The position numbers and the translations under genes are program-made. The notes beneath the pieces were generated by a model. It was not told the DNA's origin. It ran no database searches and was given only the letters and a program-made list of their open reading frames with translations. 64,000 nucleotides of DNA from the NCBI RefSeq assembly GCF_057098645.1, contig NZ_CM169472.1. One strand, 5' to 3'. Of this stretch, positions 23,594 to 37,563 are shown in pieces (the stretch's first letter is position 1; every line of letters begins with the position of its first letter).

Positions 23594-23946
23594 AAGCCCT
23601 CCTTGAGTCACCATTATGTGCATAAGATATCGCTGCTGTAGCCCGCTAATTCGTGAATTTTAGTGGCTGATTCCTGTTTATTTGTGCAAGTGAAGTTGAG
23701 TTGTTCTGGCGGTGGAATGATGCTCGCAAAAATGCAGCGGACAAAGGATGAACTACGAGGAAGGGAACAACATTTATACTGAAATTGAATTTTTTTTCAC
23801 TCACTATTTTCTTTTTAAAAAACAACAATTTCTATTGAAATTATTAAAGCCATCATAAAAATCGGCCAAAAAATATCTTGTGCTATTCGCAAAATCTATG
23901 GTAACTCTTTAGGCATTCCTTCGAACAAGATGCAAGAAAAGACAAA

Positions 23947-33539: not shown

Positions 33540-33989
33540 TCAATTTATGAGCGATATGGCATTGATTGACTTGATGACCGCCCTCTGTATGTCTGCAACC
33601 AACTCATGTGGCAAACATTGATTAAGATACCCTCTGTAAGTTCTTGCTCTGTTTAATCTGTTTCGACTGACTTGTTGTACCAGGTCGGCTTTGGCCCAAC
33701 GAATCTGCTGATCAAAGAATTGCAGGTCATTGATAATATTACTGGCTATTTCAACATGCATTCCACGATTTAACTTGTCATGGTCGCGAGTGGTTGATAA
33801 TGGAACGACGATACATGCGTTGCCATTAATTTTTCCGTTGAGCACGACAACTAACCTGTTTTTTATCATTTCAGGAGGAATGCGGCCATCGTAATACGTG
33901 GTGCTGAACGGTCCATTTTGGCTAACAGGATAGTTACCAAAGTTGCATTCCAGTATTTCACCAACCTTAGGGCTGAAATTAATCGCCAC
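33540..33989 (-). CDS. yifN: PemK/MazF-like toxin-fold protein (yifN-like), 149 aa
   Basis: Start proposed at a GTG preceded by the strong Shine-Dalgarno AAGGAGAG; N-terminal GEILECNFG, then RLVVVLNG and IVVPLSTT, resemble the PemK/MazF fold; the longer 212-aa track ORF reads into the IS2 end. Confidence 0.6.
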
Positions 33990-34134
33990 GAGTAAACCTC
34001 TCCTTAGTAAACTCTGAAAAAGTAATAACACAACGTTACGACCTAGACTGGCCCCCTGAATCTCCAGACAACCAGTATCACTTAAATAAGTGATAGTCTT
34101 AATACTAGTTTTTAGACTAGTCATTGGAGAACAG

Positions 34135-34500
34135 ATGATTGATGTCTTAGGGCCGGAGAAACGCAGACGGCGTACCACACAGGAAAAGATCGCAATTGTT
34201 CAGCAGAGCTTTGAACCGGGGATGACGGTCTCCCTCGTTGCCCGGCAACATGGTGTAGCAGCCAGCCAGTTATTTCTCTGGCGTAAGCAATACCAGGAAG
34301 GAAGTCTTACTGCTGTGGCCGCCGGAGAACAGGTTGTTCCTGCCTCTGAACTTGCTGCCGCCATGAAGCAGATTAAAGAACTCCAGCGCCTGCTCGGCAA
34401 GAAAACGATGGAAAATGAACTCCTCAAAGAAGCCGTTGAATATGGACGGGCAAAAAAGTGGATAGCGCACGCGCCCTTATTGCCCGGGGATGGGGAGTAA
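34135..34500 (+). CDS. insC: IS2 OrfA (InsC), transposition regulator
   Basis: 121 aa starting [14 protein letters not shown]; helix-turn-helix protein. Confidence 0.93.
34452..34458 (+). other. A6G slippery heptamer, programmed -1 frameshift site joining insC to insD
   Basis: AAAAAAG near the end of insC; the insD frame is -1 relative to insC and overlaps it. Confidence 0.75.
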
Positions 34501-35363
34501 GCTTAGTCAGCCGTTGTCTCCGGGTGTCGCGTGCGCAGTTGCACGTCATTCTCAGACGAACCGATGACTGGATGGATGGCCGCCGCAGTCGTCACACTGA
34601 TGATACGGATGTGCTTCTCCGTATACACCATGTTATCGGAGAGCTGCCCACGTATGGTTATCGTCGGGTATGGGCGCTGCTTCGCAGACAGGCAGAACTT
34701 GATGGTATGCCTGCGATCAATGCCAAACGTGTTTACCGGATCATGCGCCAGAATGCGCTGTTGCTTGAGCGAAAACCTGCTGTACCGCCATCGAAACGGG
34801 CACATACAGGCAGAGTGGCCGTGAAAGAAAGCAATCAGCGATGGTGCTCTGACGGGTTCGAGTTCTGCTGTGATAACGGAGAGAGACTGCGTGTCACGTT
34901 CGCGCTGGACTGCTGTGATCGTGAGGCACTGCACTGGGCGGTGACTACCGGCGGCTTCAACAGTGAAACAGTACAGGACGTCATGCTGGGAGCGGTGGAA
35001 CGCCGCTTCGGCAACGATCTTCCGTCGTCTCCAGTGGAGTGGCTGACGGATAATGGTTCATGCTACCGGGCTAATGAAACACGCCAGTTCGCCCGGATGT
35101 TGGGACTTGAACCGAAGAACACGGCGGTGCGGAGTCCGGAGAGTAACGGAATAGCAGAGAGCTTCGTGAAAACGATAAAGCGTGACTACATCAGTATCAT
35201 GCCCAAACCAGACGGGTTAACGGCAGCAAAGAACCTTGCAGAGGCGTTCGAGCATTATAACGAATGGCATCCGCATAGTGCGCTGGGTTATCGCTCGCCA
35301 CGGGAATATCTGCGGCAGCGGGCTTGTAATGGGTTAAGTGATAACAGATGTCTGGAAATATAG
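34458..35363 (+). CDS. insD: IS2 OrfB (InsD), DDE transposase catalytic part
   Basis: 301-aa ORF in the -1 frame, recognised as IS3-family integrase; probably expressed as an OrfAB fusion. Confidence 0.9.
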
Positions 35364-35541
35364 GGGCAAATCCACGACCCGATATTTTCTAAGTCTAATG
35401 GATTCACGATGAACTCCGATTTCGGTCTTCTCTCTCTGATTTAAACATCCGCAGCCAACCGGTTAGCGGCTTACACGCGGTCACATTCAAATGCGATTCT
35501 GCTACAATCCTCCCCCCGTTCGAAGATTGAGCAATACACCT

Positions 35542-37563
35542 ATGCGTCTAAACCCCGGCCAACAACAAGCTGTCGAATTCGTTACCGGCCCCTGCCTGGT
35601 GCTGGCGGGCGCGGGTTCCGGTAAAACTCGCGTGATCACCAATAAAATCGCCCATCTGATCCGCGGTTGCGGTTATCAGGCGCGACATATCGCGGCGGTG
35701 ACCTTTACCAATAAGGCGGCGCGCGAGATGAAAGAGCGTGTAGGGCAGACGCTGGGGCGCAAAGAGGCGCGTGGGCTGATGATCTCCACTTTCCATACGT
35801 TGGGGCTGGATATCATCAAACGCGAGTATGCGGCGCTTGGGATGAAAGCGAACTTCTCGTTGTTTGACGATACCGATCAGCTTGCTTTGCTTAAAGAGTT
35901 GACCGAGGGGCTGATTGAAGATGACAAAGTTCTCCTGCAACAACTGATTTCGACCATCTCTAACTGGAAGAACGATCTCAAAACTCCGGCGCAGGCGGCG
36001 GCAGAGGCAAAGGGCGAGCGGGATCGTATTTTTGCCCATTGTTATGGGCTGTATGATGCACACCTGAAAGCCTGTAACGTTCTCGACTTCGATGACCTGA
36101 TTTTATTGCCGACGTTGCTGCTGCAACGCAATGAAGAAGTACGCGAACGCTGGCAGAACAAAATTCGCTACCTGCTGGTGGATGAGTATCAGGACACCAA
36201 CACCAGCCAGTATGAACTGGTGAAACTGCTGGTGGGCAGCCGCGCGCGCTTTACCGTGGTGGGTGACGATGACCAGTCGATCTACTCCTGGCGCGGTGCA
36301 CGTCCGCAAAACCTGGTGCTGCTGAGTCAGGATTTTCCGGCGCTGAAGGTGATTAAGCTTGAGCAGAACTATCGCTCTTCCGGGCGTATTCTGAAAGCGG
36401 CGAACATCCTGATCGCCAATAACCCGCACGTCTTTGAAAAGCGTCTGTTCTCCGAACTGGGTTACGGCACAGAGCTAAAAGTTTTAAGCGCGAATAACGA
36501 GGAACATGAAGCCGAGCGCGTTACTGGCGAGCTGATCGCCCATCACTTCGTCAATAAAACGCAGTACAAAGATTACGCCATTCTTTATCGCGGCAACCAT
36601 CAGTCGCGGGTATTTGAAAAATTCCTGATGCAAAACCGCATCCCGTACAAAATATCCGGTGGTACGTCGTTTTTCTCTCGTCCTGAAATCAAGGACTTGC
36701 TGGCTTATCTGCGCGTGCTGACTAACCCGGACGATGACAGCGCATTTCTGCGTATCGTTAACACGCCGAAGCGAGAGATTGGCCCGGCGACGCTGAAAAA
36801 GTTGGGTGAATGGGCGATGACGCGCAATAAAAGCATGTTTACCGCCAGCTTTGATATGGGCCTGAGTCAGACGCTTAGCGGACGTGGTTATGAAGCATTG
36901 ACCCGCTTCACTCACTGGTTGGCAGAAATCCAGCGTCTGGCGGAGCGGGAGCCGATTGCCGCGGTGCGTGATCTGATCCATGGCATGGATTATGAATCCT
37001 GGCTGTACGAAACATCGCCCAGCCCGAAAGCCGCCGAAATGCGCATGAAGAACGTCAACCAACTGTTTAGCTGGATGACGGAGATGCTGGAAGGCAGTGA
37101 ACTGGATGAGCCGATGACGCTCACCCAGGTGGTGACGCGCTTTACTTTGCGCGACATGATGGAGCGTGGTGAGAGTGAAGAAGAGCTGGATCAGGTGCAA
37201 CTGATGACTCTCCACGCGTCAAAAGGACTGGAGTTTCCTTATGTCTACATGGTCGGTATGGAAGAAGGGTTTTTGCCGCACCAGAGCAGTATCGATGAAG
37301 ATAATATCGATGAGGAGCGGCGGCTGGCCTATGTCGGCATTACCCGCGCCCAGAAGGAATTGACCTTTACGCTGTGTAAAGAACGCCGTCAGTACGGCGA
37401 ACTGGTGCGCCCGGAGCCGAGCCGCTTTTTGCTGGAGCTGCCGCAGGATGATCTGATTTGGGAACAGGAGCGCAAAGTGGTCAGCGCCGAAGAACGGATG
37501 CAGAAAGGGCAAAGCCATCTGGCGAATCTGAAAGCGATGATGGCGGCAAAACGAGGGAAATAA
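35542..37563 (+). CDS. rep: ATP-dependent DNA helicase Rep
   Basis: Start at [13 protein letters not shown] (673 aa); Walker A GAGSGKT; UvrD/Rep superfamily 1 motifs. Confidence 0.96.

Follow-up and report, generated by a model that had tools for sequence, protein, structure and literature searches.

Results

The DNA analysed here is a window of 64,000 nt from contig NZ_CM169472.1 of assembly GCF_057098645.1. It holds one IS2 copy, at 34044–35374 on the + strand, on an E. coli chromosome of O145:H28 type, where it occupies the 217-bp spacer that separates the divergent yifN and rep genes. On the left of the element lies yifN (33540–33989, − strand), an intact 149-aa PemK/MazF-like toxin gene (PF02452) with a GTG start at 33989, and on the right lies the ORF for the DNA helicase Rep (rep, 35542–37563, + strand), with the right end of IS2 167 bp upstream of its ATG at 35542. 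The left end of IS2 is 54 bp from the yifN start, and because of this proximity the element may affect the toxin gene. No annotated antitoxin gene was found adjoining yifN, and the gene, intact in the lineage of the window, is frameshifted in the K-12-type genomes examined. The single promoter-like site called between IS2 and rep is at 35480–35508. A hybrid outward promoter, with a −35 element in the right inverted repeat (IRR) reading into rep, was also considered and was rejected, as no acceptable −10 element was seen by eye 16–18 bp past the right end.

An earlier reading of the window from its sequence alone had described this element as an undecayed and probably transposition-competent IS2, pointing to its exact length, its target duplication, its overlapping reading frames and a slippery heptamer. 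The length is indeed 1331 bp, with TAGACTGG at the left end (34044) and CAAATCCA at the right end (35374), and the 5-bp target duplication is perfect, with CGACC at 34039–34043 and again at 35375–35379. The left inverted repeat (IRL, 34044–34085, + strand) is 42 bp long, starts with TA and reaches to the end of the inverted-repeat arm at 34085, numbered here 1–42 as in PMC3299598. The IRR (35334–35374, + strand) is 41 bp long, ends with CA-3′, is the same as in the IS2A copy of E. coli K-12 and corresponds to the end described as the donor (PMC3219604, PMC3299598). Complementarity between the terminal inverted-repeat arms (34053–34085 and 35334–35366) is 79%. Just inside the left end, the primer description in PMC3219604 places the weak extended −10 promoter PIRL in a region that spans 34086–34126 (+ strand) and equals K-12 IS2A; within it, TGATAGTCT at 34091–34099 probably represents the TGn and −10 motif of PIRL, according to our own motif assignment. 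An element of about 1.33 kb with imperfect terminal inverted repeats, an IRL starting with TA, an IRR ending with CA-3′ and a 5-bp direct target duplication is what is expected of IS2.

The coding capacity is also that of IS2, with a −1-frame orfB that overlaps orfA in the 0 frame, an N-terminal helix-turn-helix (HTH) and a DDE (rve) core. Specifically, insC (orfA, 34135–34500, + strand) runs from an ATG at 34135 to a stop codon ending at 34500 and encodes a 121-aa, 13.5-kDa helix-turn-helix regulator identical to the MG1655 product, whereas the insD (orfB) frame (34458–35363, + strand) comprises 301 codons in the −1 frame relative to insC. The overlap of the two frames noted in the sequence-only reading measures 43 nt. 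Pfam matches in the IS2 frames were HTH_Tnp_1, HTH_21, rve and rve_3, the last two in insD, and the NCBIfam models “IS2 repressor TnpA”, “IS2 transposase TnpB” and “IS3 family transposase” were matched with 238.8 bits (cut-off 229), 723.9 bits (cut-off 597) and 279.5 bits (cut-off 160), respectively. Joining insC codons 1–108 to insD by a −1 slip gives a predicted OrfAB of 409 aa and 46.4 kDa carrying the DDE catalytic domain.

The element was compared with the reference copy IS2A of E. coli K-12 MG1655 (381260–382590, insC1/insD1), with which it shares 1327 of 1331 bases (99.7% nucleotide identity), the difference consisting of four substitutions and no indels. Under the ISfinder convention, elements sharing roughly 95% or more DNA identity carry the same IS name. 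One substitution on the + strand, A32G (element position 32, window 34075), falls in the IRL; the other three are synonymous, namely C274G (window 34317; GTG for GTC, Val), A606C (window 34649; CCC for CCA, Pro) and C900G (window 34943; GTG for GTC, Val). InsC, InsD and the predicted 409-aa OrfAB are accordingly all identical to the K-12 products, and the possibility raised earlier that inactivating substitutions might separate this copy from the reference was not borne out, there being no nonsense, frameshift or missense difference from K-12 IS2A.

A copy that looks intact could still be immobile if A32G, the rare synonymous C274G or the local context impaired end recognition or expression. 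This concern has some basis, as element position 32 lies within the protein-binding part of the IRL, and an effect of the rare synonymous G274 on the mRNA is possible. The distribution of IS2 in E. coli nevertheless speaks against it. IS2-like sequence was present in 4853 of 5426 complete E. coli genomes, and an exact match to the 80-bp left end carrying G32 was found in 2408 of the 7201 E. coli records holding an IS2 left end, i.e. about one third, so that A32G was discarded as an inactivating private mutation. The G32 haplotype one base removed from the copy under study occupies many unrelated chromosomal and plasmid sites, for example in genes for PAS-domain, phage tail, autotransporter, fimbrial and MFS proteins and in yahL, and occurs at up to 12–19 places per genome. 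Its presence at so many distinct sites implies repeated transposition, and hence that G32 is not disabling; in our own alignment of the two ends, moreover, position 32 is one at which IRL and IRR differ anyway.

The truly rare base is G274. Many matches among the E. coli genomes were 99.9% identical and differed from the copy under study at position 274 alone, whereas a 100% identical copy was present in one record only among the 5426 complete genomes, that of E. coli FDAARGOS_943, which has IS2 at 19 places. In that genome the identical copy is inserted in yejO, and its PGAP annotation is that of an intact IS2 transposase with a programmed frameshift, so that the G274 variant too is found at a second site. 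Since the copy in the window is itself a fresh insertion, an intact-looking but immobile element appears improbable, and mobility of the present copy is the reading that is followed below. As a separate observation, G274 at 34317 could mark the donor lineage from which this IS2 copy came. As a rough proxy for the genome-wide number of IS2 copies in this type of strain, two IS2 left-end matches were found in O145 strain RM9872.

The slippery heptamer A_AAA_AAG, a −1 ribosomal frameshift site corresponding to the A6G window of IS2 (PMC3219604), lies at 34452–34458 on the + strand, in the context ...gaa tat gga cgg gca aaa aag tgg ata gcg.... Its position agrees with the sequence-only reading, and the insC-frame codons at 34450–34458 are GCA AAA AAG, which gives the X_XXY_YYZ phase that tandem −1 slippage requires. 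By itself the AAAAAAG heptamer is statistically unremarkable in the window, with 21 copies against an expected 13.8 ± 3.7. Among these 21 copies, however, the ORF context of the one at 34452–34458 is unique, the 0 frame being open for 121 codons upstream and closing 15 codons later while the −1 frame is open for 301 codons downstream. It is thus an in-phase heptamer placed within the overlap of orfA and orfB, as expected of a frameshift signal of this kind.

In addition to the heptamer, a downstream hairpin that had not been mentioned in the sequence-only reading was found and is also intact. A 6-nt spacer, UGGAUA (34459–34464, + strand), invariant in all eight aligned sequences, separates the heptamer from a 72-nt interrupted hairpin (34465–34536, + strand) that, judging from its folding energy and its pairing in relatives, is a probable frameshift stimulator. 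Its G+C-rich lower helix of 9 bp pairs 34465–34473 with 34528–34536 (+ strand; GCGCACGCG with CGCGUGCGC), and in the fold an upper helix of 12 bp pairs 34482–34493 with 34514–34525 (+ strand). The hairpin has a folding energy of −36.8 kcal/mol, or 0.511 kcal/mol/nt, and ranks first of the 1260 72-nt windows in IS2, for which the local mean is 0.324 ± 0.051 kcal/mol/nt. A 94-nt stretch containing it has a minimum free energy of −40.9 kcal/mol (z-score −2.9), with none of 200 shuffled sequences being as stable. For comparison, the stimulatory hairpins of the IS3 family (n = 271) average 0.452 ± 0.124 kcal/mol/nt (Sharma et al. 2014, PMC4066793), a range that includes the IS2 value. [quoted passage not shown]

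The structure was further examined in an alignment of eight IS2-group sequences, seven of them distinct, in which the plasmid-borne relatives were 76–97% identical. A_AAA_AAG is kept in seven of the eight sequences. Pairing in the lower helix is complete (100%) in the relatives, with one compensatory change (n = 1), C-G to U-A at 34472/34529, and amounts to about 80% in the upper helix across the seven distinct sequences, in a region that also lies under two overlapping reading frames. These relatives support the hairpin, short of proof, given the small sample and the constraint that both reading frames place on this stretch. A search of Rfam over 33900–35500 (E-value ≤1) gave no family matching the frameshift signal. 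From the fold and its conservation we infer that the 72-nt hairpin would stimulate the −1 slip. One relative departs from the heptamer: in the sequence from the Klebsiella pneumoniae plasmid CP023937.1 (76% identical), CGA AAA TGG replaces the AAA AAG TGG aligned to 34447–34461, leaving only an A_AAA tetramer at the heptamer spot beside an unaltered spacer and lower helix, and slippage at this tetramer may be weaker or of a different kind.

The insD product might also be reached without ribosomal slippage at the heptamer, either if transcription slipped on the A run or if InsD were translated separately from the GTG at 34458 and acted unfused. The GTG is in frame with insD, and in the K-12 annotation insD appears as a gene of its own, of 301 aa. 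Six A residues in a row are, however, few for efficient transcriptional slippage, and the phase of the heptamer, the 6-nt spacer and the hairpin together fit ribosomal −1 frameshifting. The experimental literature points the same way: A6G has been described as a ribosomal slippage site giving low-level OrfAB, and its replacement by A7G, i.e. the addition of one A, makes fused OrfAB, the active transposase, the main product (PMC3219604). The predicted mass of the fusion, 46.4 kDa, moreover agrees with the title of Hu et al. 1996, cited in PMC3219604, which names a 46-kDa IS2 protein. Recoding by a route other than ribosomal slippage at A_AAA_AAG is hence judged very improbable, and programmed −1 frameshifting is retained as the reading of this signal.

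The insertion could be dated by comparison with closely related genomes. Over the 24.6 kb that lie right of IS2, several E. coli O145:H28 genomes show 100.0% identity to the window, and one O145:H28 strain, RM12761, has yifN next to rep, without an IS and with a single CGACC. Removal of IS2 and one CGACC from the window gave a match to RM12761 at 3300 of 3301 bases, and over a 50-kb comparison IS2 was the only large difference between the two, with identities of 99.93% on the left and 99.975% on the right. Three small gaps distinguish the window from RM12761 in the left 34 kb, one of which is a poly-T tract upstream of the ilv leader (~23790–23797) with T8 in the window and T7 in RM12761. The preservation of the empty site in near-identical O145:H28 genomes indicates that the insertion is recent. 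The IS2 junction at the yifN–rep spacer was absent from all complete E. coli genomes searched, O145:H28 included, so that the insertion is young and specific to the source strain or to a narrow clade; the perfect duplication and the lack of any private non-synonymous change are consistent with such a young insertion.

That all complete O145:H28 genomes in the collection are without IS2 at this place could be expected if IS2 had been put in the yifN–rep spacer by an assembly artefact, through the collapse or misplacement of a repeat. Against such an error, the 5-bp duplication precisely repeats bases that are single at the empty site, which is the signature of real transposition, and the same target has been used in two other, unrelated genomes, so that we give an artefact almost no credence. 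With the insertion taken as genuine, the evidence from the ends, the frames and the flanking DNA makes it highly probable that 34044–35374 is a full-length, undecayed IS2 (IS3 family, IS2 group) that transposed recently into the yifN–rep spacer of an O145:H28-type E. coli.

The search for this junction also showed that the neighbourhood of yifN has received IS2 more than once. In strain ST540, an IS2 differing by six bases from the copy under study occupies the same CGACC in the opposite orientation, and in strains Z226-5 and Z226-6 an IS2-like element diverging at 29 bases (2%) lies 1 bp away with the duplication ACGAC. Together with the copy in the window, these make three independent IS2 insertions within 1 bp of CGACC upstream of yifN. 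Further independent 1331-bp insertions in other E. coli genomes, at least five of them within the 450 bp of yifN, lie at positions equivalent to 33599, 33630, 33655, 33855 and 33976 of the window in yifN, 33150 in ppiC and 32781 in ilvC. Each of nine other IS2 insertions examined had its own 5-bp duplication (9/9). The yifN region has a G+C content of 41.7%, compared with 52% for the window.

A strict orientation bias of IS2 near yifN, suggested by 23 genomes in which all insertions were co-oriented, proved to be an artefact of a search that joined pieces on one strand only. With an inverted IS2 as the query, four more genomes with insertions in the yifN region were recovered. Counted as distinct events, insertions in the orientation of the window and in the inverted orientation number 8 to 2 across ilvC, ppiC and yifN; for yifN with the spacer upstream of it the split is 7 to 1. 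The events are too few to establish a clear bias. It can be proposed, tentatively and as a reading that may well not hold, that IS2 integration has a true site-specific hot spot in the pentamer CGACC, which lies 54 bp upstream of yifN, an orphan gene for a PemK/MazF-like toxin. At least three independent insertions no more than 1 bp apart, involving different IS2 variants and both orientations, together with repeated insertion in the body of yifN, would be in keeping with this proposal, and persistence of the insertions might then come about through changed expression of yifN or rep.

Discussion

The element and its recoding signal are already known biology, the signal being a textbook one, and the pathway that this copy would follow can be taken from the open-access papers of the Lewis laboratory (PMC3219604, PMC3299598). 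According to that work, orfA and orfB would be carried on one transcript from PIRL, the weak extended −10 promoter within the left part of the element. Normal translation would give the 121-aa InsC/OrfA regulator, while at A_AAA_AAG a small share of ribosomes would slip back by one base into the insD frame, yielding the 46-kDa OrfAB transposase of 409 aa with its helix-turn-helix N-terminus and DDE core. OrfAB would cut the IRR alone, because the left end with its TA-3′ terminus lacks donor function in step I (PMC3219604, PMC3299598), and would join the IRR beside the IRL, giving a figure-of-eight and from it a minicircle. At the minicircle junction the abutted ends would form the strong promoter Pjunc, and the circle would then insert both ends into a target with a 5-bp duplication.

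All the cis and trans parts of this pathway are present in the copy under study and equal to the reference, A32G in the IRL aside. As far as its sequence can tell, the copy arose through recent insertion by this pathway, and its fresh arrival at a site that relatives retain empty lends indirect support to transposition through figure-of-eight and minicircle intermediates. It also appears undecayed by every sequence criterion and is probably mobile, so that the sequence-only reading of a transposition-competent element is supported by proteins identical to those of K-12, by intact ends, promoter and duplication, and by the recency of the insertion. Wild-type IS2 is tightly limited by low frameshifting, by its weak promoter and by a left end without step I donor function (PMC3219604), and for this reason even an intact copy may move only rarely.

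The intact IS2 at yifN, being absent from all related complete O145:H28 genomes, offers a usable strain marker, and its presence points to recent IS2 activity in this Shiga-toxin-producing lineage. Beyond such strain bookkeeping it is of little import. More generally, recombination between IS2 copies seeds duplications and deletions, and one such case began with an IS2 hop into yifN: during laboratory evolution of K-12, new IS2 insertions, one of them into yifN, were followed by IS2-flanked amplifications of 39 kb and 250 kb (PMC4340650).

Among related recoding systems, the frameshift signal of IS911 includes an upstream Shine-Dalgarno-like stimulator. No Shine-Dalgarno-like 4-mer (GGAG, GAGG or AGGA) was found by reading the 30 nt upstream of the IS2 signal, and the structure in IS2 differs from those of IS911, IS150 and IS3 in being a long interrupted hairpin, here a putative stimulator. 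The likeness to IS911, IS150 and IS3 lies in ORFs arranged in the 0 and −1 frames, an A-rich slippery motif in their overlap, an RNA structure placed 4–10 nt downstream and low-level production of OrfAB (PMC3219604, PMC4066793). Closer relatives are found in the IS2 group itself, in ISEc27-like and other elements on Klebsiella and E. coli plasmids, which are 76–85% identical in the signal region. These share with the present copy the position of the heptamer, the 6-nt spacer and the 9-bp lower helix, with its C-G to U-A change, but they are distinct elements and not IS2, and the relative at 76% identity is without the full heptamer. The closest comparison remains K-12 IS2A, which has the same length, promoter region, heptamer, hairpin and right end and a left end differing only by A32G, and from which the copy under study is set apart by its chromosomal site in the yifN–rep spacer of an O145:H28-type strain. 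The K-12 IS2 that was active in the evolution experiment of PMC4340650 encodes the same proteins as the copy described here.
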